From the NCBI GenBank assembly GCA_963666985.2, contig CAXXIA010000002.1, positions 160,001 through 224,000 on the forward strand: 64,000 nucleotides of DNA, written 5' to 3'. This DNA comes from Spirochaetia bacterium (lineage in GTDB: Bacteria; Spirochaetota; Spirochaetia; DSM-2461). A program made the translations under genes and the position numbers. The first letter of the stretch is position 1, and each line of letters begins with the position of its first letter. Positions 45,496 to 63,369 of the stretch are shown here, in pieces. Under the pieces are notes generated by a model. It was given only the letters and a program-made list of their open reading frames with translations. It did not search any database and was not told the DNA's origin.

Positions 45496-45570
45496 TCCCG
45501 ACGGGATTCGGATGCGGAGAACAGACAAGACGCCGCATAAGAGTTCTCCCGACGGGATTCGGGAGTGCTC
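45496..45570. repeat. 16-bp direct repeat TCCCGACGGGATTCGG (45496-45511, 45547-45562); the second copy lies in a hairpin between convergent genes
   Basis: Read directly; stem GAG.TT.CTCCCGA / TCGGGAG.TG.CTC. Confidence 0.7.
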
Positions 45571-45625: not shown

Positions 45626-46351
45626 CTATATCGCGGCAGCTTTCATTTGCCTGAGAAAATCCTGCATTTCCGAGGGATTATCCCGGAGCTTCAACACCGC
45701 GCTTCCGACAAAAAATCCATCGGCTCCGCATTCCTTGATGTACCGGATATCATCCGAAGTCCGTATGCCGACTCCGCAATAGATGGGGCGATCGCTCCCC
45801 TTGGTGACGGTCTCCCGGAGGAAGCGGATGCATTTATCCAGGGTGTCGTATTCCGGATGGACCTCTCCGGTGGACTTCGACTGAAGGTAGAGAAATCCAT
45901 TCGTTTCGCGGGCGTTGATGAGTTCCTCTTCCGGAAGATGAAAGGGGATATATGTGCTGACTTTCAGTCCGGAATCCATGCATGTCCGACGAAAATCCCT
46001 GTTGGGTTCGCCGAGGTACACCAGATTCTCAAAACCTCCGTCGGTGCAAAAACGAATAAAGCGGTCTTCACCGATTTCTTCAATGGTCTTCCGATAAGCC
46101 AGGATGATGTACTTCTTGTCGGGATGACACCGCTTGATTGCAAGAAGTGCATCCATGTACTCCTGATAGTCGCCGCATGCCTCCAGCGCCGCTTTCATCC
46201 GATCTTGGATGAACGGAGGATCGAGATACGGATCCCGGGCCGGGAAATCAGCTTCCAGGACATCGCATCCGGCCTCGAAGAACAGATCCGCCGATTCCGA
46301 TGAATACTCGATGGAAGGATATCCGTTGGATAAGTAACAAATAAGGTTCAT
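45626..46351 (-). CDS. Tryptophan synthase alpha (TrpA)-family TIM barrel, stand-alone paralog 2
   Basis: YLSNGYP, GCDVLEADFPARDPYLDPPFIQ (E49 and D60 equivalents kept), GFLY, YCGVGI, GADGFFVGSA. Confidence 0.88.
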   Translation of the reverse strand: MNLICYLSNGYPSIEYSSESADLFFEAGCDVLEADFPARDPYLDPPFIQDRMKAALEACGDYQEYMDALLAIKRCHPDKKYIILAYRKTIEEIGEDRFIRFCTDGGFENLVYLGEPNRDFRRTCMDSGLKVSTYIPFHLPEEELINARETNGFLYLQSKSTGEVHPEYDTLDKCIRFLRETVTKGSDRPIYCGVGIRTSDDIRYIKECGADGFFVGSAVLKLRDNPSEMQDFLRQMKAAAI

Positions 46352-47085
46352 GAGTTCGCCGCTCCTTGACATACCAGCTTAAATTCCCGGATTTTCTCCC
46401 TCAATTCGTCGGGAAAGCCTTCAAGTTCCATGAAGGTACTTCCGACAAAAATCCCGTCACTGCCCGATTCCAGGGCCAGAGCGGCATCTTGAGGAGTTTT
46501 AATGCCCACGCCGGTGTATATTTTTCGATCCTGCGCCAAACGGAGACGCAGATAATCGATGCAATTCCTCAATTCGGGGAATCTCAGCCGATCATCGGAA
46601 ACCTGGGGCTTCGCCTGAAGGTAGACGAATCCGTTCCCTCGCTCCGCCGCACCGACTTCATTCCAATCCATCTGGAACTGGACGTAGCAGCTGATATGAA
46701 GACCTGCGGCAATCAGCCGGTTCTTCATCACGGAGTCTCCCCCCCCGATGAAGGTTACGTCGAGAAACCCTTCTGCAAGGCAAAATCCGACGAAACGATC
46801 CTCGCCGATTTCTTCGATGGTCTCTTCATAAGCCAGAAGGAAGATCGTCAGGCCGGGACAGGCGCTCCGGATCGCCGTGAGATTCTCCATGTAGGCTTCC
46901 CAGTTAAGGCTCTTTTCCCGTGCAGTGAGCATCCTCCGGGCAATATTAGGCCCTTCCAAATAGGGATCTGCGGCAGGAAAATCGATCTGCATGGCATCAA
47001 TCCCCGCCTTATGATAGCGCAAAGCCAGATCCCGGCTGCCACCCAGCGAGGGATACCCGTTCGAGAGGTATGAAATCAGCTTCAT
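46348..47085 (-). CDS. Tryptophan synthase alpha (TrpA)-family TIM barrel, stand-alone paralog 1
   Basis: YLSNGYP, GIDAMQIDFPAADPYLEGPNI (E49->Q, D60->E), GFVY, YTGVGI, GSDGIFVGST. Confidence 0.88.
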   Translation of the reverse strand: MKLISYLSNGYPSLGGSRDLALRYHKAGIDAMQIDFPAADPYLEGPNIARRMLTAREKSLNWEAYMENLTAIRSACPGLTIFLLAYEETIEEIGEDRFVGFCLAEGFLDVTFIGGGDSVMKNRLIAAGLHISCYVQFQMDWNEVGAAERGNGFVYLQAKPQVSDDRLRFPELRNCIDYLRLRLAQDRKIYTGVGIKTPQDAALALESGSDGIFVGSTFMELEGFPDELREKIREFKLVCQGAANS

Positions 47086-47088
47086 CGG

Positions 47089-48231
47089 TCAGGATCCGGA
47101 ATAAATCGTCCGCAGCAATTCAGTCATTCCCTCCTTCGAAGGAATGATCGGATTGGTTTTCGTACAGCCGTCGGCCATGGCTAAGTCCGCGAGGGTTCCT
47201 AAGTTCTTCTCGAAGGCCTCTTCTTCAACCACATCGCCCAGAGTTCGGGGAATCCCGACTTTTTCGTTCAGACTTCTGACGGCATCTCCGAAGTCGCCGG
47301 CCCCCAGGGCTTCCGCCAGGCCGTCGTATAGGCCCTTTGCGCGGGAATCGGAGCAGTTGAAATCGATCACATAGGGAAGAATGATCGCATTTGCCTTCCC
47401 GTGGGGAAGATGAAAAAGTGATCCGCAGCCGTGGGCGATGGAATGGACGATGCCCAGAGAGACGTTGGTAAAGGCGAGTCCTGCAACCATCGACGCGTTC
47501 ATCATCGTCTCCCGCGCCTTCAAATCTCCGCCATCTTTGCAAGCCGCGGGAAGAGCGCGGAAGACATCCAGAATAGCCTGTTTCGCCAAGATGTCCGACA
47601 CGTAATTAGCTCGAGTGGACGCATAGGCCTCGACGGCGTGAGTCAGGGCGTCCATTCCCGTCGCGGCGGTCATTTCCGGAGGCAAGCTCACCGTCAGGAC
47701 CGGATCGCAGATAGCCAAATCCGGCATCATCTCCATATTGCCTATCCCGCATTTCACCCCGTCATCGTCGGTGATTACCACAGAACGGGAGACTTCGCTC
47801 GCAGAACCGCTGGTCGTCGGAATGCAGCCGAAACGCGCTTTTCCGCGCAGTTTGGGAAATCCTTCCTTGGACATCAGAGGAACGAGGGAATCAATCTCGG
47901 GATGCTCATAGAGCACCCACATCGTCTTGGCCGCATCCATAACCGAACCGCCGCCGACGGCAAGGATGAAATCCGGCTCTTCCCCGAGGAAGAACTCGGC
48001 GCCTTTCCTCACTGTGGAGAAGGAAGGATCGGGCTCCACGCCGACAAAGACGGAGAACGGAATCCCGACTTCTTCCAAGGGAGCGACGATGAGCGCCCAC
48101 TGCTCACTTTTTCTGATTCGTTCCGAGGAAACAACGATAACGACTTTTTTCGCGCCCAGGGTTTTCAGATGCCCCAGGGTCCCGGCTCCAAAAAGGAGTT
48201 GGTTCCCTGCGAGTTTCATTGGCCTCATCAT
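47089..48231 (-). CDS. Iron-containing alcohol dehydrogenase
   Basis: GGGSVMDAAK, PTTSGSASE, GMDALTHAVE, GIVHSIAH, HGKAN. Confidence 0.94.
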   Translation of the reverse strand: MMRPMKLAGNQLLFGAGTLGHLKTLGAKKVVIVVSSERIRKSEQWALIVAPLEEVGIPFSVFVGVEPDPSFSTVRKGAEFFLGEEPDFILAVGGGSVMDAAKTMWVLYEHPEIDSLVPLMSKEGFPKLRGKARFGCIPTTSGSASEVSRSVVITDDDGVKCGIGNMEMMPDLAICDPVLTVSLPPEMTAATGMDALTHAVEAYASTRANYVSDILAKQAILDVFRALPAACKDGGDLKARETMMNASMVAGLAFTNVSLGIVHSIAHGCGSLFHLPHGKANAIILPYVIDFNCSDSRAKGLYDGLAEALGAGDFGDAVRSLNEKVGIPRTLGDVVEEEAFEKNLGTLADLAMADGCTKTNPIIPSKEGMTELLRTIYSGS

Positions 48232-48236
48232 GAGCT

Positions 48237-49022
48237 TTATCCTTTGTACGCGGCAATCAGATCACTTGCCAAAGCGGAATCGATGGGATTCGTCAGAACT
48301 CCGCCCTTCTTGATGGAAGAACCGATAAAAGCGCCGTCGGCGATGTTCATTTGGTCCTTGATGTTGTCTGTTTTCACTCCACTGCCGACGAAAACGGGGA
48401 TTTTCACGTTCTTTTTCACATTTTCGAGGCTTTCGATCGGCGTCGCATGTCCGCTGGCCGCTCCGGTAATGATGAGACCGTCGGCACCGCAGTCAACGGC
48501 CATTTTTGCGCTTTCCACAAGCGTTATGGAAGGAACGAGCATGTAGGAATGCTTCACCTGGATGTCGGCCAAAATCTTGATATTCGATCCTTTCAGTTCT
48601 TCCCGATACCGCATGCAATCCGCCGCCGAAGGCTGGATCGTTCCACCGAAATACACGACGGTATCCACGAACACCGGCGTTCGGATGAAATCCGCATCGA
48701 GGATCTTGGCAATTGACAAGGACGTCTTGTAATCGTTGAAGGCCGCGTCTATGCCGATGGGCAGAGAGACATTCCTGCGAACCAGGGCGGCTATGGCGGA
48801 AAGGGCCGCAATCTGCGGAATATCCATAAAGGGCTTCAGCGGCGTATCGTTCATGTTCTCGATGCAGATCGCATCGAAGCCCGCTTTTTCAAGTTCTTTC
48901 GCGTCCTGGATAGCTTGGCTGATGATCTGTTCGCAATTATCCGCAAAATACGGGGTTTTCGGGAGCGGCAGGCAATGGACCATGCCGATCAGGTTCTTCT
49001 GATGCAAATCAAATTTCTTCAT
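48237..49022 (-). CDS. BtpA/SgcQ-family TIM-barrel protein
   Basis: IGMVHCLPLP, GFDAICIEN, ADFIR, LADIQVKHS, DGLIITGAASG, VGSGV, DGAFIGS. Confidence 0.93.
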   Translation of the reverse strand: MKKFDLHQKNLIGMVHCLPLPKTPYFADNCEQIISQAIQDAKELEKAGFDAICIENMNDTPLKPFMDIPQIAALSAIAALVRRNVSLPIGIDAAFNDYKTSLSIAKILDADFIRTPVFVDTVVYFGGTIQPSAADCMRYREELKGSNIKILADIQVKHSYMLVPSITLVESAKMAVDCGADGLIITGAASGHATPIESLENVKKNVKIPVFVGSGVKTDNIKDQMNIADGAFIGSSIKKGGVLTNPIDSALASDLIAAYKG

Positions 49023-49783
49023 GGCGTTTTCTTCTCCTTTTGATCGAGATTGAAAAAACTCTCCAGAGCCGCCCGGCAAAGGCGGTCTTCGGCCCGGGAA
49101 CGTTCTTCACCCTCCAAAACCCTCTTTAAGTTTTCCAGGACGGTAGCCAGGGTGAGAACCGCCGTCCGGACGCCCATGAGCCGTCCTACGTTCAACATCG
49201 CCGATGATTCCATATCAATGCAGGTCACCCCGAGTTCCTTCAGCTCGGTGAACGAAGCAACGATGTCACTTCCCCGCTCCCGGGAGAGCTTCGATTCGTG
49301 CATCTGAGAATAAAAACCGTCCTTGGTGCAATTCAGGCAGGTATGGTTCCTCTCGCCCATTTCGGCAAGGGTCTCACGGAGGTTCTGAACCATGGAAAAG
49401 TCGGCTACCGCGGGGTATCCCCGGGGCACGTAGCTGGAACTGGTGCCCTCCTGAGAGATGGAAGCCACAGGAATGAGGAAATCGCCGAGATAGTCGTCCA
49501 CCAGGCTCATGGTGGTTCCCATCCGCAGAGCCGCCCTCATGCCGCAGTTATACATTTCCTCCATGGCGATGGCGGCACTGGGCGCGCCGATTCCGGTAGA
49601 AGTAACGGTGATGGGGACACCCTTGTAGAAGCCCGTATAGGTGTTGAATTCCCGCGCGTAGGCGATATGCCTGGAATCGTCCAGATATTGCTGCACGTGT
49701 TCCACGCGCTGCGGATCGCCGGAGAAAATGACATAGGGCGCTACGTCGTCCGGCGAAACCTTCCCGTAGAGAGTTTTATTCAT
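49019..49783 (-). CDS. Nucleoside phosphorylase (PNP/UDP family 1, uridine-phosphorylase-like)
   Basis: GDPQRV, REF, STGIGAPS, RMGT, DMESS. Confidence 0.92.
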   Translation of the reverse strand: MNKTLYGKVSPDDVAPYVIFSGDPQRVEHVQQYLDDSRHIAYAREFNTYTGFYKGVPITVTSTGIGAPSAAIAMEEMYNCGMRAALRMGTTMSLVDDYLGDFLIPVASISQEGTSSSYVPRGYPAVADFSMVQNLRETLAEMGERNHTCLNCTKDGFYSQMHESKLSRERGSDIVASFTELKELGVTCIDMESSAMLNVGRLMGVRTAVLTLATVLENLKRVLEGEERSRAEDRLCRAALESFFNLDQKEKKTP

Positions 49784-50741
49784 GAGTATTCCTTTTCCAG
49801 GCAGCGTGGCGCACCGAAAGTTGGTCGGCATTCGGTGCGTTGGTCACGCAGCCCGTTTTTTCAATGATGAACGAGGAGCAGACAGTGCCGAGTTCGCAGC
49901 ATATCCGGGGATCTTCCTTGCGGAAAAAACCGTACAGGAAACCGGCGATGTAAGCGTCGCCCGCTCCGGTAAAATCGGCGATGGGTGTCTCGGTGGGGCA
50001 TGTTCCGACGCGGAAAGCCGCCTCCCCGCCCATTTTATCAAGGAAGCATCGGCTTCCCTTTTTACCCATCGTCTCGACAATAATCTTGGCGTTTCCAAGG
50101 CGGAAGAGGTCGGTGATGCTATCAAGGGAAAAAGTCCGTACGATATCTTCCGATTCATGCTCGTTGGTGAAGATAATCTCGCTGTAGAGGAGCGCTTCCT
50201 CCAAGAAATCCCTTGGAAAGGCGTCGGCATCGAGCTTCATCCCCAGGATCAGCGGAACACCGTTTTTCCGGCACCCCTCAAGGAAAAGCCGGTTGTCCTG
50301 TTCTGAAGCGACGGTCATCAGGCCGTAAGCGCTCCGTTGGAAAAGCTCGTCTGGAACCGGTTCGGCGAATCGGCCTTCCATAGCCCCGGGATAGAAAAGG
50401 GTGATATGGTTTCCCAGATCGTCCTCGATGATGTATGAGCCGCTGGTTTTCTCGTCCGGCATCTCGCGGACGGCGTCCAGTGGCACTCCGAGCCTTTCTA
50501 AAAAGTCCCTGTAGCCGATATCGATCCAGTCGCCGCCCACCCGCATAATGGGGAGGGCCCGGGAGCCTAGGACGGTAAGGAGGCAGCAGATGTTGGCCGC
50601 GCATCCGCCGAAATAAATCCGACGGTTATCGGCGTTGGAAATAATCGACGTGCGGCCAACCTCGGTCCGGCTTTTGGTCTTAATCAGGTTGTCCATGGAA
50701 ACATAACCGCTTCCGATCAGGTCATACCGTTTTGAACTCAT
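49776..50741 (-). CDS. PfkB/ribokinase-family kinase (nucleoside-kinase-like)
   Basis: GGCAANI, NEHE (NxxE), ETMGKKG, DFTGAGDAY anion hole. Confidence 0.92.
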   Translation of the reverse strand: MSSKRYDLIGSGYVSMDNLIKTKSRTEVGRTSIISNADNRRIYFGGCAANICCLLTVLGSRALPIMRVGGDWIDIGYRDFLERLGVPLDAVREMPDEKTSGSYIIEDDLGNHITLFYPGAMEGRFAEPVPDELFQRSAYGLMTVASEQDNRLFLEGCRKNGVPLILGMKLDADAFPRDFLEEALLYSEIIFTNEHESEDIVRTFSLDSITDLFRLGNAKIIVETMGKKGSRCFLDKMGGEAAFRVGTCPTETPIADFTGAGDAYIAGFLYGFFRKEDPRICCELGTVCSSFIIEKTGCVTNAPNADQLSVRHAAWKRNTHE

Positions 50742-51302
50742 AGGATGCCCCGCTCGATCCGATCTTCCACCTCCGCGCTCCCCAGGACTGTTCCGATGTA
50801 CTTAGAAATGTCCCTCAGATAAACGGCGTTGGTGGCCTCGTCGTCGGTTCCCACACAGTCGGACACAACAAAGGTTTCGTAGTTCCTGTAATAGCTGTCC
50901 AGCGCCGTGGCGTTGATACAGCAGTTGGTCTTGGTACCCACGATCACCAAGTTCTTCACGCCGTTCTCTCTAAGAACCAGATCCAGATCGGTTCCGTAGA
51001 ACGCCGAGTAGCGGCGCTTCGGAATCACGTATTCACCCTCGCGGGGAGCGAGTTCCGAATCGATTTCCACGCCGCGGGTTCCTTCGAGGCAGCATTCCCT
51101 CATGTTCTCAAGATTCTTCTCCGGCATGCCGCGGCGATAGCGGTGCTGCATGAAAATCACCGTCATACCCTTGCTCCGGAAAAAGTCGAGGAGGGTCCTT
51201 GATTCGCGGAATAATCTCCCTGTTTCGGGGATAGAAGACCTTTCCCTCCGGATGGGTAAAATCGAAAACCATATCGACAACGATCAACGCGGTTTCAGAC
51301 AT
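50738..51302 (-). CDS. Isochorismatase/nicotinamidase-family cysteine hydrolase; +1 frameshift at ~51197
   Basis: MSETALIVVDMVFDF joins TLLDFFR...KRRYSAF...GTKTNCCI after removing one base; D-K-C triad. Confidence 0.88.
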
Positions 51303-52209
51303 GGGAAATCCCCCGGATATTCGTTCGGGAATGCTTCACGCCTTCGACGGCGAAAAGAACCACCACAATGGCCAGGTAGGGAATCATCTTCAAAAGAATA
51401 GCAATGGATCCGTAGGTGACGGCTAAATTGATCGCCAGGGATTTGGCTGCACCGAAGAGGAAGGCGTAGAGACTGCTCTTCAGAGGCTTGCCGTCCCCGC
51501 AGTAGATGGCGGCGATGGCGATGAATCCGATGCCGTCGGTAAAGGATGGCGTAAAACTCGCCAGCTGCTCCACCGTAACGTTGTATCCCGCGAAACCGCA
51601 GAAAACGGCGCCCAAAATAACGGCGAAATACTTAATCTTCGCCGTCGGGATGCCCAGGCTCACCCCGGCGTCCTCGTTGTCCCCGCAAACACGCACGTAG
51701 ACGCCGACGGGAGTCCTGTAGAGAACCGCCCAGGCTGCAAAAACCGCCAGTAGGGAGAGGTAGGTAAACGGCGTGTGTCCGCTGAGGATTCCCCCAAGAA
51801 AAGGCAGACGGCCGATGAGCGGCAGATCCACCCCGAGATCCACCACCCTATCGATGTTGATCAGGTTAATCTCCGTCAGACCCATTTCAACGAGGATGTA
51901 TTTTCCCGCGGCTGTGGCCAGAAGATTAATTCCCAATCCCGTAATAATGAAGTTCGCATTCTTGTTCACCGAAAAATAAGAAAACAGCACACCGATGGCC
52001 GCCGAAATGACCATTCCCACGATGATTCCCAAGAAAAGGCTCTGGGTGAAGAATATCGCCAAAACCGAAGCCAAGCCGCCGAAATACATCATTCCCTCTA
52101 GACCGATGTTCACGATATTGGCCCGGTATGCGAACAGCCCGCCCACTGTGCAGAACAGGATGGGAGAGGTATAGAGCAGGACATCGGAAAGGAATCTGAT
52201 GATATTCAT
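51295..52209 (-). CDS. Nucleoside-type ABC transporter permease (NupC-like)
   Basis: NIGLEGMM, GVYVRVCGDNEDA, GIGFIAIAA; BPD_transp_2 pattern. Confidence 0.92.
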   Translation of the reverse strand: MNIIRFLSDVLLYTSPILFCTVGGLFAYRANIVNIGLEGMMYFGGLASVLAIFFTQSLFLGIIVGMVISAAIGVLFSYFSVNKNANFIITGLGINLLATAAGKYILVEMGLTEINLINIDRVVDLGVDLPLIGRLPFLGGILSGHTPFTYLSLLAVFAAWAVLYRTPVGVYVRVCGDNEDAGVSLGIPTAKIKYFAVILGAVFCGFAGYNVTVEQLASFTPSFTDGIGFIAIAAIYCGDGKPLKSSLYAFLFGAAKSLAINLAVTYGSIAILLKMIPYLAIVVVLFAVEGVKHSRTNIRGISHV

Positions 52210-53306
52210 CCGATCTTCTCCTTTCTTCTCCCGGAGTCCAGGAGGGACTCGATTCGTTTGTAGCCCCGAGTATTCGGACCGCCGATCATTTTGAGCGAGA
52301 GCAGAAGAATAATCATTGCCTGGATGAGCGCGATAATCTCGCTGGGGACATGGGTGAAGACGCTGATGTTCTGAACACCGACCTTCAGAGTGGCGTAGAA
52401 AATTGCCGCCACGATAATGCCCGCCGGATTGTGAGCCCCCAGTAAGGCGATGAGCATCCCGTCCCAACCCAGGCCCACGGCACCGCTGAACGAAAGGGTG
52501 TAGGCATATTTCTCGCTCATCAGCCATCCTGCCCCCGCCAGGCCGGCCAGGGCGCCGCTGATGAGCATGATGGTCAGAATCTTCCGGCCGACGTTCATCC
52601 CCACCGCCTCGCTGAACGAGGGATTATACCCGATGGCCTCGATTTCAAAACCAAGCCGGGACCGGTTGAAGAGGAAATACATCACGATGAACACCGCGAG
52701 AGCAACGAAGGTGAAGATGGTCAATTTTGTTCCCCCCAGATGATGGAGGATCGCATTGTCGGGCAGCATGTTCGTCGACACATATCCAGAACTGGGATTT
52801 CGGAACGGCCCGGAGGTTAGGTACTCCAGAAAAATGGCGATGGCATAGTTCAACAGCAGGGAGACCACCATCTCGTTCACGTTGAAGAAGGCCCTCAGAA
52901 CGGCCGGTACGGCGGCAAAGAGTATGCCGCAGACCATCCCCGTTACCAGACAAAGGGGCACGAGCAGCACCGGAGACATAGCGGGGAAGGATGTCCCGAC
53001 GATCATGGCGGCGAAGGCTCCGACCAGGAGCTGTCCCTCCACTCCCATGTTGAAAAAACCCGCCTTGAAGGTAACGGCGATCGCCAAGCCGGTAAGCATC
53101 AACGGCGATGCGTAATGCAGGGTTTTCATCAATCCCTGGAAGTCGAAAAGCGACTTGGAGAACAGAATCCAATAGGTGCTCAGAGGATTCTCCCGGGCGA
53201 TGAGAATCACCACCGCGCCGATAAGGAATGCGAGAATTACCGGGGATACCGCGTTCACCAGGGTGACGGCGGCCTTCGTATTGCGTTGCGGATCATTTTT
53301 TTTCAT
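52206..53306 (-). CDS. Nucleoside-type ABC transporter permease (NupB-like)
   Basis: FNMGVEGQL, NVNEMVVSLLLNY, GLGWDGMLIALLG. Confidence 0.92.
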   Translation of the reverse strand: MKKNDPQRNTKAAVTLVNAVSPVILAFLIGAVVILIARENPLSTYWILFSKSLFDFQGLMKTLHYASPLMLTGLAIAVTFKAGFFNMGVEGQLLVGAFAAMIVGTSFPAMSPVLLVPLCLVTGMVCGILFAAVPAVLRAFFNVNEMVVSLLLNYAIAIFLEYLTSGPFRNPSSGYVSTNMLPDNAILHHLGGTKLTIFTFVALAVFIVMYFLFNRSRLGFEIEAIGYNPSFSEAVGMNVGRKILTIMLISGALAGLAGAGWLMSEKYAYTLSFSGAVGLGWDGMLIALLGAHNPAGIIVAAIFYATLKVGVQNISVFTHVPSEIIALIQAMIILLLSLKMIGGPNTRGYKRIESLLDSGRRKEKIG

Positions 53307-54853
53307 TCTTTAACCCCCGCCATCAGCAGTCCCAGTTCACCCCTCGTTACGTTGCGGGCGTCGACTTCGTCGATAAACCGGCCACGGTACATCACGAGAA
53401 TCCTATCGCTCAAACTCATAATTTCACTCAGCTCCGTGCTGACCAGCAGGACGGCCTTCCGCTTCTTCCGCAAAGCCAGGATCGTTGTGTGGATGAACTC
53501 GATGGCTCCGATGTCGACTCCCCGGGTCGGCTGGGCCGCGATGAGAAAATCAGGATTGGATTCGAGTTCCCTCCCGATGATGATCTTCTGGGCATTTCCC
53601 CCTGAAAGGGACGACAGCTGTCCCCCGGCGTCGCTGATGCGGATATCAAAGTCCTCGATCAGCCTATCCCTCCAATGCTCGATGGCCCGTCTCTTCATCA
53701 GTCCTCTGGAGCAGAATTCAGAATTGTAGTGGTAGCCGGCGATGCAATTGTGAGCAAGAGTCATTTCTCGGCAGAGTCCATGGACATACCGTTCTTCGGG
53801 AATGATGCCGATCCGCCGGTCCCGAAGACCGCGGGGCCAGGAATTCGTAATGTCCTCCCCGCGCATCCTGACGGTTCCCTCGGTGGAGCGCATCAGCCCC
53901 GAGAGCACTCGAATGAGCTCACTCTGGCCGTTCCCCTCGACTCCGGCGATCCCGAGGATTTCACCTTCTTTCACTCCGAAAGAGACGCCGTCGACAACCT
54001 TGCGCCCATCGTCGGTCCTCGTGGAAAGATTCTCCACTTCGTAAACCAAGGGATTGTTCGGGGAGGCCGAATGGTCCGATTCCACCGAAAGCAATACGTC
54101 ACGGCCGACCATGAGCTGGGCGAGTTCCCGTTCACTCGTCTTGGCGGTTTCGATGCTCTTCACCACCTCGCCTTTCTTGATGACCGTGACGCTGTCGCTG
54201 ATCATCATCACTTCCTTCAACTTGTGGGTGATGATGATGATGGTTTTCCCCTGCTTCTTCAGCTGCCGGAGCGAATCGAAGAAATCATCGATTTCCTGAG
54301 GCGTGAGGACGGCCGTCGGCTCGTCGAAGATGAGAATATCGACGCTCCGGTAGAGCATCTTGAGGATTTCAACCTTCTGCTTCGCTCCGACGCTGAGATC
54401 CCGTACCAGTGTATCGGGATCCAGATCGAATCCGAAGCGTTCGATCAGCTCGAGGACCTTGGCCCTCCCCTTCCTCCTGCTCAGCAGGGGCAGCGTCACC
54501 GATCGTCCCGCCAAATTGATGGTTCCTTTCACCTCCGCGCCCAAAAGGACGTTTTCCCGGACCGTCAGGGTGGGGACGAGCTTGAAATGCTGATGAACCA
54601 TGCCGATGCTCGCCCTTATGGCGTCCACGGGAGATGTAAAATTTACACGGTCACCGCGAACCTCGACATGGCCGTTCGTCGGTTCAAGCAGGCCGTAGAG
54701 CACATTCATCAGTGTGGTCTTTCCCGCGCCGTTTTCACCCACCACCGCCTTGATTTCGTTCTCGGCGACACTGAAATGGATGTTTTTGTTTGCGTAAAAG
54801 TCACCGAATTTTCTGGTAACGCCCACGCATCTGATGATTTCCACGACCTGCAC
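53303..54853 (-). CDS. CUT2 ABC transporter ATP-binding protein (NupA-like, two NBDs)
   Basis: GENGAGKT, MVHQHF, DEPT, GVEGNGQ, LSGGNAQK, QPTRGVD. Confidence 0.95.
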   Translation of the reverse strand: MQVVEIIRCVGVTRKFGDFYANKNIHFSVAENEIKAVVGENGAGKTTLMNVLYGLLEPTNGHVEVRGDRVNFTSPVDAIRASIGMVHQHFKLVPTLTVRENVLLGAEVKGTINLAGRSVTLPLLSRRKGRAKVLELIERFGFDLDPDTLVRDLSVGAKQKVEILKMLYRSVDILIFDEPTAVLTPQEIDDFFDSLRQLKKQGKTIIIITHKLKEVMMISDSVTVIKKGEVVKSIETAKTSERELAQLMVGRDVLLSVESDHSASPNNPLVYEVENLSTRTDDGRKVVDGVSFGVKEGEILGIAGVEGNGQSELIRVLSGLMRSTEGTVRMRGEDITNSWPRGLRDRRIGIIPEERYVHGLCREMTLAHNCIAGYHYNSEFCSRGLMKRRAIEHWRDRLIEDFDIRISDAGGQLSSLSGGNAQKIIIGRELESNPDFLIAAQPTRGVDIGAIEFIHTTILALRKKRKAVLLVSTELSEIMSLSDRILVMYRGRFIDEVDARNVTRGELGLLMAGVKE

Positions 54854-54861
54854 CTCGATAA

Positions 54862-56028
54862 TCAGTTCTTACGGACGACGTTCTCCAGCTCGGCCCAGTC
54901 GATCTCTTCGCCGGACTGGGCGTCGATAACGTCGATAGCTCCGGAGCCGATCTGTTCCTCGATGCTCGCAATCTCGGCTTTGATGTCCGCCCAAACAGCT
55001 TGCGCTTCATCGGTTTGAAGGACGAATCCTTCGATCACGCTTAAGTCGGTAATCCCCGTCGCCCCTGAATTCATAGAATAGTAGATATCCGTGCCGGATA
55101 CCGCGCCGAGCTCCCCGTTGACAAGTTTCTCGGTGATGTCGAAGACGGGAACATTGGTGTTTTTGAGGACCGAGGTCAGGATGGTGCCGGGTACCTGAGC
55201 GTCCTGATTCGCGTCCACGTCCACACACAGGCGACCGGCCTTCTTGGCCTCGTTCCGCATGGAAACCGCGACACCGCCGGCAGCCGCGTAGATAATGTTG
55301 CATCCGGCGTCGTAGTAGGTGGCTATGGTCTGGGCGACAGCCGGAGTGGCTGCGAATCCCGCGGCGTAATCGGAGTAGTAGTCGTAGGTAACGCCGAGCT
55401 TCTCGGCTTCATAGTCCACGCCGGAAATAAAACCGTTTCCGAAGACGCTGATGCCGCTGCTCGCCGTTCCGCCGAGGAAACCGACGGCCCGGGCTTCGTC
55501 GGTAGACACGAATTTATAATCACCGCCGAAGAGGACGTCCGCGTTCTCATTGGCGAGGACGGACAGGGCGCCGGCAAGAAAAGACCCCTCGTTTACATTG
55601 AAGAGAACCTCCACCACGTTCGGCTGGATCTTGGACCCGTCTTCGGCCGTATTGGCGAAAGCGTTGAAGATAACGAACGTCGTTTCGGGATACTGCTCCG
55701 CGATGGATTTTCCGCTTCCGTCGTTATTGATCAGCGCATCGAAATTGTATTCGAGCGAAAAAATCAAATCGTACCCGGCGGCGGCCAAAAGAGTCAGCGC
55801 TCCGGGAACATCGTCCGCGTTGTCGACGACTTTGGTCTCGATGGAGTACTTCTCGGCAACGGCATTGAGTCCTTCGATGGAAAACTCGTTATATCCGTTG
55901 TCGTTCGCACCGGCGGCGGAGACAATCAATCCGACATGAAGAATATCGGATTCCTCGCTCTTCCCGCCGCAGCCGACGACGAGCAGTATCGAAGCCAAAA
56001 CCAAGAAACTTGCAATCATCCTTTTCAT
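54862..56028 (-). CDS. BMP-family ABC substrate-binding lipoprotein (nucleoside-binding type)
   Basis: Lipobox VVGC, NDNGYNE, NEGSFLAG, IYAAAGG, VDANQD, TSVLKN. Confidence 0.92.
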   Translation of the reverse strand: MKRMIASFLVLASILLVVGCGGKSEESDILHVGLIVSAAGANDNGYNEFSIEGLNAVAEKYSIETKVVDNADDVPGALTLLAAAGYDLIFSLEYNFDALINNDGSGKSIAEQYPETTFVIFNAFANTAEDGSKIQPNVVEVLFNVNEGSFLAGALSVLANENADVLFGGDYKFVSTDEARAVGFLGGTASSGISVFGNGFISGVDYEAEKLGVTYDYYSDYAAGFAATPAVAQTIATYYDAGCNIIYAAAGGVAVSMRNEAKKAGRLCVDVDANQDAQVPGTILTSVLKNTNVPVFDITEKLVNGELGAVSGTDIYYSMNSGATGITDLSVIEGFVLQTDEAQAVWADIKAEIASIEEQIGSGAIDVIDAQSGEEIDWAELENVVRKN

Positions 56029-56157: not shown

Positions 56158-56889
56158 TCATCGGATTTGATTGATGAAGAACTTGAACTGATCGGACCTG
56201 TAATAACAGGAAAATTGCTCAACCGGAATTTCGACTCCGTTTGAGATACCGTAAGTAAGGCAGCGAAAAAGGAGTATGGGCACATTCTTCTTGATTCTGA
56301 GAGACTTCGCGATTACCTCGTCCGCCGAGATGGCTTCTATCGTCCTATGAGCCCGGGAGATTTTAATCTGGTACTTCTTCTCAAGAATGTCATAAAGGGA
56401 ATTCAGAGAGAAATCGAGGAATTCGATGCCCGGAAGCAGACTGTAGGGCAGGAAGGACTGGGTCCGATTCAAAGGAACATCGTCGGCGAAGTATATCCGG
56501 TCGAGGTAGAAAAGCTTGTCGGTACTGTTGATCTTCAAGTCGTAGGCCTGCTTGACGGTGCAGGGGATCACTTCACTGGCCAGAACCTGTCGGCTTGGCT
56601 CCATGCCGTGGGCCCTGATATCCGTTGTACAGCTCGTCAGATTGATTAAATTCTGATTTTCATGATCCATCTCCACGTAGGTTCCCTTTCCCTGAATGCG
56701 AAAGAGGTACCCCTCCTGGACCAATTCGTCGATGGCACGCCTGACTGTAATCCGGCTGACGCCGAACTTTGCAATAAGCTCCCTTTCGCTGGGAATAGGC
56801 TTTCCTTCTTCTTCCTTCCATACCTCTATGAGTTTCTTGAGTTGTTCCTTAATACGATAATACTTCGGAAGAACGGCAAGATCTTTCAT
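56158..56889 (-). CDS. GntR-family (HutC subfamily, UTRA domain) transcriptional regulator
   Basis: PSERELIAKFGVSRITVRRAI, QGKGTYV, UTRA domain ending SCYYRSDQF; ATG 56889 follows AGGTGG. Confidence 0.94.
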   Translation of the reverse strand: MKDLAVLPKYYRIKEQLKKLIEVWKEEEGKPIPSERELIAKFGVSRITVRRAIDELVQEGYLFRIQGKGTYVEMDHENQNLINLTSCTTDIRAHGMEPSRQVLASEVIPCTVKQAYDLKINSTDKLFYLDRIYFADDVPLNRTQSFLPYSLLPGIEFLDFSLNSLYDILEKKYQIKISRAHRTIEAISADEVIAKSLRIKKNVPILLFRCLTYGISNGVEIPVEQFSCYYRSDQFKFFINQIR

Positions 56890-56899
56890 TTCCACCTAC

Positions 56900-61896: not shown

Positions 61897-63369
61897 TTAG
61901 CCCTCTCTTGCGAACGCTTCGGCTTTCGAGGCCATCTCTTCATCCAGGAACCCCGCGGCCAGCCCCGCCTGCAGAAGATCCTCGATTCTCGCCCAGGAAT
62001 GAAGCCGGATACCGGCGGATTCCATGTCACGGCGGCCCAGGGTTCCCCGTTCTATAAGCACCACAAGATCACCAACCGCCAGACCCGCTTCCTTGAGAAC
62101 CGCCGCCGCCTCGCGCTTGCTGCCTCCGGTTGTAATCAGATCATCAAGCATAACGGCACAATCCCCTTTCTTCCAAACACCTTCCACGCGGGCTCCGGAG
62201 CCATGTTCCTTTTTTTCAAGCCGCGGAAAAATAAGGCTCATGCCGGAAGCCAGCGAGGCGGCGGTCGCCAGCGGCAAAGCGGCTACCGGGATACCGGCGA
62301 TATGGTCGGCTTGTATGCCCGCGATAAGCTCCGCGTATGCCCGTCCCGCCAATGCAAGCAGACGAGGTTCGGCGCCGATGCGCCTTAAATCGATGTAGAA
62401 AGGTGATATTTTTCCCGACTTAAGAAGGAACTCTCCTGTGCGGAATGCACCGATTCGGAAAAGTCCTTCCAGAAGTTCCCGGCGTTCGTCTTCGGAAAGA
62501 ATCACGAAGCTCTTGGAAGATGCCGCTTTTTCATCGGCGGTATCGCTCTTCCCCGACTTCACGGCACCCCGATGTTTTCGTGCCTCGTCAAGAACATCCC
62601 GAAGCTCCTCGGCGGCCGCGGCCGGATCGGAAGCATCGGCAACCGAACGGCTGGCCGAAACAAGAACGCCGAATCCGTCGCTTCTGGCTCCGGCGGCCAC
62701 GGCCTCATCGGCGTTTCCGCCCTGTGCTCCAATCCCCGGAGCCAGAAACCAGGTTTCCGGATGGCGTTCGCGCACCGAAGCAAGGATGCGCGGATCGTTT
62801 CCCGCCACAACCAGCCCCACCGACGGGGTTTCGGACTTGCGATTCCAGCTTAAAACCTCATCGGCGACGGCCAGATAGAACGGTGTTCCATCATCCAGAA
62901 TTCGTTCTTGAAGAGCGCCGGCGCCGGGATTGGTGGTACGGCAGAGAAGAAAAACACCCTTATCCTTCCGACTCATAAAAGGCTCGACCGATTCGCGGCC
63001 GAGATAAGGCGACAAGGTAACGGCAAGAGCGCCGGGTCTGTCGAGAAGGGCCTGGGCATAGGCCTCCGCGGTGGAGCCGATATCACCTCTTTTGGCATCA
63101 AGGATAATCGGGAAATCAGGATCGATAGTTCGAATATAATCAAGGATCGCTTCAAGAGCGTTCCAGCCCGAGGCGCCGTGACGTTCGAAAAACGCCAATT
63201 GCGGTTTAAAGGCGACGACGAAAGGAGAACAGGCGTCGACGACTCTGCGGCCGTAGTCAACCAGTTCATCGAAAGAGTCGTTACTCTTCTCAATTCTGGG
63301 ATCAATCCCGACACAAAGCGGGCCGCCTTTTTTCCGAGCGGCGGCTTCCAGCGATTCAAAGAAAGTCAT
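61897..63369 (-). CDS. pyrF: Bifunctional OMP decarboxylase / orotate phosphoribosyltransferase (PyrF-PyrE fusion)
   Basis: LCVGIDP, KPQLAFFE, DAKRGDIGST, PGIGAQGG; then LKSGKISPFYIDLR, KEHG, LDDLITTGGS. Confidence 0.95.
   Translation of the reverse strand: MTFFESLEAAARKKGGPLCVGIDPRIEKSNDSFDELVDYGRRVVDACSPFVVAFKPQLAFFERHGASGWNALEAILDYIRTIDPDFPIILDAKRGDIGSTAEAYAQALLDRPGALAVTLSPYLGRESVEPFMSRKDKGVFLLCRTTNPGAGALQERILDDGTPFYLAVADEVLSWNRKSETPSVGLVVAGNDPRILASVRERHPETWFLAPGIGAQGGNADEAVAAGARSDGFGVLVSASRSVADASDPAAAAEELRDVLDEARKHRGAVKSGKSDTADEKAASSKSFVILSEDERRELLEGLFRIGAFRTGEFLLKSGKISPFYIDLRRIGAEPRLLALAGRAYAELIAGIQADHIAGIPVAALPLATAASLASGMSLIFPRLEKKEHGSGARVEGVWKKGDCAVMLDDLITTGGSKREAAAVLKEAGLAVGDLVVLIERGTLGRRDMESAGIRLHSWARIEDLLQAGLAAGFLDEEMASKAEAFAREG

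Follow-up and report, generated by a model that had tools for sequence, protein, structure and literature searches.

At one locus of a spirochaete genome, two adjacent genes encode relatives of the tryptophan synthase alpha subunit (TrpA) that differ from each other in their predicted active sites. This raises the question of which reaction these proteins catalyse and whether both of them are needed for it. The genes, here called TrpL1 and TrpL2 (paralogs 1 and 2), lie at the end of a series of genes on one strand of the window, that is, the whole stretch of 64,000 nucleotides that was analysed (Table 1). Both open reading frames are intact, and the ATGA overlap that joins them is real; an AAGGAG sequence precedes the ATG of the second gene. 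The proteins are 40% identical across 236 amino acids. Scans for promoters and terminators gave no signal above chance level. Between efp and TrpL2 (window 45497-45566), the 15-base word CCCGACGGGATTCGG is present twice, its second copy being a small hairpin.

Table 1. Position of the tandem TrpL genes and of the genes preceding them in the window
Feature	Position	Strand	Remarks
GntR-type regulator	56158..56895	-	assigned by sequence motif; homolog in 63/80 genome loci
BMP/PnrA-type substrate-binding lipoprotein	54862..56028	-	PF02608; solved relatives include TmpC
ABC ATPase	53303..54853	-	two ATPase domains
ABC permease	52206..53306	-	BPD_transp_2
ABC permease	51295..52209	-	BPD_transp_2
Isochorismatase-family cysteine hydrolase	50738..51302	-	frame broken by an extra base near 51193
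PfkB kinase	49776..50741	-	closest to MJ0406 nucleoside kinase and mycobacterial adenosine kinase
Uridine-phosphorylase-like nucleoside phosphorylase	49019..49783	-	phosphate and ribose motifs kept, base pocket altered
BtpA/SgcQ family protein	48237..49022	-	TIGR00259, 219 bits (cut-off 153)
Fe-containing alcohol dehydrogenase	47089..48231	-	family-conserved SRS and CTKTNP motifs
TrpL1 (paralog 1), TrpA-fold protein	46348..47085	-	245 aa; Q33/D35/E44, lacks the Glu49 equivalent
ATGA stop/start overlap, TrpL1/TrpL2	46348..46351	-	same overlap in L094 and L140
TrpL2 (paralog 2), TrpA-fold protein	45626..46351	-	241 aa; E33/D35/D44, presumed catalytic copy

Judged by sequence, TrpL is a TrpA-fold subfamily separate from TrpA itself, and not TrpA by membership. 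It shares with TrpA (PF00290/TIGR00262) the fold, the Glu49 and Tyr175 equivalents, the phosphate motifs and, in TrpL2, Asp60; it differs in an identity of only about 25%, an Asp in place of Gly51, the loss of the GVTG motif and a changed interface. Both paralogs pass the Pfam Trp_syntA cut-off, and both miss the TIGR00262 equivalog cut-off of 102.35 bits (87.8 and 55.4 bits, the TrpL2 query lacking its first Met). The structural comparison proposed in the initial annotation clearly gives TrpA as the nearest fold. The TrpL2 model (pLDDT 95.7) is a (beta/alpha)8 barrel of the TrpA type (TM 0.85); among 48,161 representative chains TrpA came out on top (Z 28.4, rmsd 1.8, 227 residues), and the first neighbour other than TrpA had a Z of 18.3.

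Alignment with E. coli TrpA (1v7y) places E33, D35, D44 and Y155, in TrpL numbering, on Glu49, Gly51, Asp60 and Tyr175, and G195 and G216-S217 on Gly213 and Gly234-Ser235. This upholds what had first been read by eye, namely Q33/E44 in paralog 1 and E33/D44 in paralog 2, with an Asp at Gly51 and with the phosphate motifs and the Tyr175 equivalent kept in both; a Pro at the Gly61 position of TrpL2 had been overlooked. The loop 6 region reads QAKPQ in TrpL1 and QSKSTG in TrpL2. Its proposed replacement stands insofar as GVTG is gone, but in TrpL2 T161-G162 still align with Thr183-Gly184 while Gly181-Val182 are gapped, so that here the loop is shortened and not wholly replaced. Asn104, Phe107 and Asp130, at or near the TrpB interface in TrpA as described in PMC8187860, correspond to K88, E91 and G114.

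Family searches returned 279 and 484 relatives, the best 120 of each being listed. Among the 182 core members, which are those outside the two tandem clades, E33 is found in 180, E44 in 179, and D35 and R51 in all; Y6, Y134, Y155, Q157, G193, G195, G216 and S217 are each present in at least 95%, and GVTG occurs in none of the 173 rows that the pattern could read. In these alignments Gly51 to Asp, Asp60 to Glu and the QAK loop are traits that define the whole TrpL family and not the pair alone. The active sites of the two paralogs do differ as initially annotated, but E44 and QAK represent the family norm; therefore, of these sites only Q33 distinguishes paralog 1. The family alignment contains no invariant active-site lysine, the mark of class I Schiff-base aldolases. 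In the two tandem clades K159 has given way to Arg in 3/9 and 3/10 members, a pattern that speaks against a Schiff-base role, and it varies in 15 of the 182 others; K237, on the last helix, is Ala in P0276 and P0277.

The genes around TrpL say more about its function. In the genome loci (the best 80 of 150 confirmed), from Clostridia, Sporolactobacillus, Izemoplasmatales, Coriobacteriia and one member of the Sphaerochaetaceae, the dehydrogenase gene lies immediately upstream of TrpL in 80/80 cases. The complete, ordered block from transporter to dehydrogenase is found in 63 of the 67 loci having enough upstream DNA. As to the exceptions, L071 has the complete block, with two genes at or under the 35% identity filter, and L050 is devoid of one permease, the hydrolase and the kinase. 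Two Sporolactobacillus loci, L022 and L067, are without BtpA and retain the dehydrogenase and TrpL, which weakens the case for an obligate link with BtpA. In P0131, a single sequence on one contig, dehydrogenase and TrpL are fused. TrpL is thus the terminal gene of a conserved operon, which probably serves the uptake and breakdown of a nucleoside. Its distribution is patchy: the family was found in 0/40 relatives of the source genome, in 0/400 genomes of its phylum, in no plasmid searched, and in 5/400 scored genomes of the class to which G439 belongs, two of these five being already among the collected loci. Neither the operon nor the subfamily was found in the literature searched, mainly the main texts of open-access papers, and a word search of the available text of two papers on nucleic acid use by Izemoplasmatales (PMC8289736, PMC10470597) gave no mention of these genes. 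Downstream of TrpL, a glyoxalase/VOC-family gene directly follows in 19 loci (e.g. L027:10725-11192); L022 has a gene for a Cof-type HAD phosphatase at this side, and such phosphatases occur near TrpL in only 4 loci. Elsewhere in the window, on the minus strand, an apparent OMP decarboxylase-orotate phosphoribosyltransferase fusion was recognized from sequence (61897-63369).

The phosphorylase differs in its base pocket from the S. pyogenes uridine phosphorylase and keeps the motifs that we take to bind phosphate and ribose, the roles of all three regions in the window enzyme being presumed. The altered base pocket and the occurrence of deoC elsewhere in the carriers (see below) indicate that the substrate is probably non-standard. 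The PfkB protein retains the FYPGAM motif of adenosine kinase and scores far under every specific model, including NF053626 for the haloarchaeal ribose 1-phosphate kinase (61.9 bits, cut-off 330). The dehydrogenase matches its superfamily and reaches only 16.8 bits with NF053832, the model for glycolaldehyde reductase (cut-off 550). A 99% identical strain, with the whole stretch on one contig, is without the extra base in the hydrolase gene (one sample, low depth), so that the frame break either arose in the assembly or is a lesion peculiar to the strain. His, Glu, Asp and Lys residues are conserved in BtpA; its single-sequence model was of low quality (pLDDT 48.7), searches of PDB and Atlas provided no functional lead, and the family is described as still unassigned (PMC13343008). 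In L022 BtpA is missing and the Cof-type HAD phosphatase is present, which hints weakly at a phosphatase function for BtpA.

On the basis of these elements we tentatively favour, with slightly less than even confidence, the view that TrpL is a TrpB-independent retro-aldol lyase in the catabolism of a non-standard nucleoside: it would split a pentose phosphate derived from that nucleoside, the products being a triose phosphate and a small aldehyde. The ABC system would bring the nucleoside into the cell, the cysteine hydrolase would strip an amide or acyl group, and the phosphorylase and PfkB kinase would supply a pentose phosphate, with BtpA acting as isomerase or phosphatase. TrpL would then cut the C2-C3 bond of the open-chain pentose phosphate, or of its iminium, by a TrpA-type acid-base retro-aldol split, releasing a two-carbon aldehyde, to be reduced by the neighbouring Fe-alcohol dehydrogenase, and a triose phosphate, most likely glyceraldehyde 3-phosphate. 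During TrpA catalysis indole C3 receives a proton from Glu49, which then accepts that of the 3'-hydroxyl, while Asp60 stabilises the indolenine; both E49D and D60N are reported to abolish activity (PMC12930369, PMC9512447). We infer that the indolenine is in effect a 2-substituted pentose 5-phosphate closed to a cyclic imine; an open-chain pentose phosphate or its iminium would therefore fit a TrpA site. E33 would take the role of Glu49, where TrpA has indole N1 the C1=O or C1=N group would be polarised by E44 or D44, and the former indole pocket would have been turned polar by D35, Y6, Y134 and Q157.

Several observations favour this lyase function: the dehydrogenase is invariably upstream, the block is ordered and one fusion exists; TrpA is the nearest fold, and E33, D35, E44 and the phosphate residues are each present in at least 95% of the 182 core members; the glyoxalase-family gene of 19 loci would suit a reactive aldehyde. 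The proposal that the substrate is phosphorylated likewise finds its support in the conserved phosphate motifs. Other observations count against a lyase. The FYPGAM motif suggests that the kinase phosphorylates a nucleoside at its 5' position and not ribose 1-phosphate; TrpL is without an invariant lysine; and the conserved Arg and Lys residues of the dehydrogenase could mean that its substrate carries a phosphate, whether its step precedes or follows that of TrpL. Furthermore, an enzyme that cleaved a free aldose by aldol chemistry with nothing but two carboxylates would be unusual. A more elaborate scheme can be imagined, in which the operon is an anaerobic pathway for modified nucleosides (e.g. 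2'-substituted, or N-acyl/ureido) that combines a cofactor-free retro-aldolase derived from TrpA, a role for BtpA and, where two copies exist, a heterodimer of an active copy of ancestral type and a translationally coupled dead copy, echoing the lost partnership with TrpB; as a whole this is rather unlikely.

A pathway of the same logic has been published and lends support to the lyase function: the haloarchaeal non-carboxylating pentose bisphosphate pathway, described as converting guanosine to triose phosphate and ethylene glycol (PMC9700705). Both systems would comprise a uridine-phosphorylase-like enzyme (at the family level), a ribokinase-family kinase, an aldol cleavage and an aldehyde reductase; the haloarchaeal one, however, uses a ribose 1,5-bisphosphate (R15P) isomerase, a HAD phosphatase and a FucA-type aldolase (PMC9700705), all three of which the core TrpL operon lacks. 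The latter instead has BtpA, TrpL, the cysteine hydrolase and the ABC importer, and neither R15P isomerase nor RuBP phosphatase nor FucA-type aldolase was detected among the scanned operon genes. In the deo pathway, DeoA or DeoD, DeoB and DeoC, together with an alcohol dehydrogenase, convert a nucleoside into glyceraldehyde 3-phosphate and a two-carbon aldehyde, but DeoC is a Schiff-base aldolase, whereas TrpL has no invariant lysine. The source genome carries deoB and four deoC matches outside the operon, and deoC is present in 5/5 other carriers; the operon is therefore not a deo replacement, and ordinary deoxyribose use as its sole role was rejected. Two of the deoC-like genes of the source genome are in tandem, the first being much diverged (G000:C3:34704-36028), beside a sugar kinase and an ABC transporter; genes for a nucleoside phosphorylase, a hydrolase and a BMP transporter are found within 20 kb. 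Salvage of nicotinamide riboside would account for at most three of the operon enzymes, and the expected nicotinamidase metal motif is absent from the hydrolase consensus. Cleavage of the riboflavin side chain was also dropped: the fin neighbourhood published for it consists of RibF, a class I aldolase and reductases, and its main text leaves tryptophan synthase, BtpA, phosphorylase and isochorismatase unmentioned (bioRxiv 10.64898/2026.02.13.705874). The E. coli operon sgcXBCQAER, described as induced on nitrogen-containing substrates including inosine, also combines a BtpA/SgcQ protein with an importer and a hydrolase (PMC13343008). It differs in its PTS uptake and an epimerase, and TrpL, phosphorylase and dehydrogenase are not among the genes named in that paper (PMC13343008).

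What, then, is the role of the second copy? Single-copy loci dominate. One TrpL gene is present in 80/80 genome loci (77 of them with at least 900 bases downstream), 76 with E33/E44 and 4 with E33/D44; the metagenome loci, of which the best 80 out of 144 were compared and many come from gut strains that are nearly identical, comprise 78 with a single copy and two, L094 and L140, with the pair. A general need for two copies is therefore not supported: the pathway runs with one E33 enzyme and a heterodimer is not required. L094 and L140, 49-54% identical to the window, have its gene order, with Q33/E44 followed by E33/D44. Among the matches listed, Q33 and D44 proteins also occur on equal-sized contigs (lengths 53698, 20129, 1907178 and 1787), and 9/15 listed members of the P0277 cluster match members of the P0009/P0011 clusters in this way; equal contig size is an indirect sign of pairing, and two such contigs that were fetched (2092 and 3380) carry true pairs. 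No partner was seen for the D44 proteins P0005, P0007 and P0013 or for the Q33 proteins P0284 and, on contigs shorter than 1.4 kb, P0124, P0275 and P0301. The pair is a conserved minority, a lineage-level variant with fixed order and ATGA coupling in the three loci. It is real but secondary, the conserved pathway being the larger finding.

Since even E49D kills TrpA activity (PMC12930369), a Q33 protein should not perform this chemistry. In the two-gene lineage the E33/D44 copy would be the catalyst, and the co-translated Q33 copy might be a binding or structural partner or take a side step. It is somewhat unlikely that each of the tandem copies works on its own, with a substrate or a step to itself, and that they form no complex. 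Such independence would agree with a quick tree, with long outgroup branches and its careful search unfinished, in which the Q33 and D44 sets each group together (SH-aLRT 99 and 87) and the two tandem clades are not sisters (separating branches, SH-aLRT 80-93). In this tree the tandem D44 copies stand near single-copy D44 proteins and the Q33 group is nested among E33/E44 singles, so that the pair may have united two old subtypes instead of arising by local duplication; 9/10 D44 copies keep a TrpA-like Pro155 equivalent. Furthermore, E44, Q136 and the phosphate site are retained in the Q33 clade, whose own fixed changes are T192 and M220. However, the shared chemistry depends on the residue that Q33 replaces, gene order and ATGA coupling do not vary among the three loci seen, and Q33 and D44 proteins are found on contigs whose lengths match. 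The Q33 copy is probably a non-catalytic or re-specialised partner, the non-catalytic role being somewhat likelier than that of a separate enzyme.

As to the reaction itself, it is unlikely that TrpL performs exact TrpA chemistry on another heteroaryl-glycerol phosphate or a C-linked sugar, releasing glyceraldehyde 3-phosphate and a polar ring such as imidazole, pyrimidine or pterin. The retained catalytic and phosphate residues, the polar pocket and the Asp60 to Glu change in 179 core members would all be in keeping with it, as would the handling of a base-bearing substrate by the operon. On the other hand, no operon enzyme recognisably makes such a substrate, the base would already have been removed by the phosphorylase, and the tight link with the dehydrogenase is less well accounted for. 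The probability is small, too, that TrpL is no lyase and acts on a sugar phosphate as isomerase, epimerase or Amadori-type enzyme, any bond cleavage being left to BtpA. With E33, D35 and E44 the barrel, which binds phosphate, has three carboxylates placed suitably for proton transfer; the closest structures after TrpA are epimerases and synthases of sugar phosphates, and BtpA has its conserved polar residues; but the two Sporolactobacillus loci retain dehydrogenase and TrpL without BtpA, and the fusion partner of the dehydrogenase is TrpL, not BtpA.

Finally, TrpL could be a stand-alone indole-3-glycerol phosphate lyase, such as BX1/IGL, or a spare TrpA. The Trp_syntA score, the Glu49 and Asp60 equivalents of TrpL2 and the existence of a stand-alone bacterial TrpA activity (PMC9100643) speak for this, as does carrier G441, with trpB and without canonical trpA, yet the idea is very improbable. 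trpB was found in 0/160 TrpL loci (80 genome and 80 metagenome), while the identical query was positive beside 13/13 canonical trpA matches. The source genome has trpE, trpG/D, trpC/F, trpB and trpA together at C2:1369851-1377517 (the upstream names being read from their sequences), and of five other carriers tested three possess canonical trpBA at another site, whereas two are without canonical trpA. Together with the replaced interface residues, this bears out the suggested independence from TrpB. The canonical TrpA frame of the source genome (G000:C2:1369851-1371005) begins with a long N-terminal extension and carries inserted residues behind loop 6. Maize BX1/IGL are likewise TrpA offshoots independent of TrpB, but they retain the indole pocket, the substrate and the GVTG loop (SVNGVTG in BX1, a motif with no counterpart in the TrpL alignment), whereas in TrpL pocket and loop are altered and the operon context is that of a nucleoside, unconnected with indole. 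The equivalog cut-off, too, is missed.

The database label of these relatives is tryptophan synthase alpha, a recurring misannotation; as two carriers lack canonical trpA, tryptophan or indole pathway predictions based on this label would be wrong. The TrpA offshoots in the literature examined all still cleave indole-3-glycerol phosphate. A TrpA-derived enzyme acting on another substrate would, if confirmed, be a clear change of substrate in a much-studied barrel, TrpL could be a new aldolase scaffold, and BtpA would gain a first biochemical role within a modified-nucleoside pathway. The operon is self-contained and highly ordered, and its carriers in culture include Coprococcus comes, Ruminiclostridium, Faecalicatena orotica and Sporolactobacillus, which makes BtpA/SgcQ function directly testable.

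That paralog 1 is a decaying duplicate, as might be suggested by its lost catalytic Glu and by most matched pairs, in which it has changed slightly faster than paralog 2 (e.g. 78% versus 86%), is scarcely credible, given Q33 in 9/9 clade members down to 48% identity and, with synonymous sites saturated (pS 0.75-0.79), a dN of 0.39-0.45 close to the 0.31-0.40 of paralog 2. In the between-locus comparison pS amounts to 0.71-0.79 overall, and dN/dS is about 0.1-0.16 where dS is computable, not near the value of 1 that relaxed selection would give; both copies are under purifying selection. The 99% identical strain has at least 4 synonymous and at least 3 nonsynonymous differences in TrpL1, and at least 2 and at least 4 in TrpL2, too few to judge selection. 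A distant Q33/D35/E44 group with altered phosphate loops also exists (P0169, P0173, P0174, P0177, P0179, P0181-P0183, P0185 and P0188), for which no gene neighbourhood was found among the 400 scored genomes of the class of G439; given the presence of Q33 in such distant relatives, proteins with this residue may be active in their own right. Just beyond the tandem pair of L140, on the opposite strand, lies a gene for a glycyl radical enzyme of the PFL2/dehydratase type (L140:1887-3380, minus strand).
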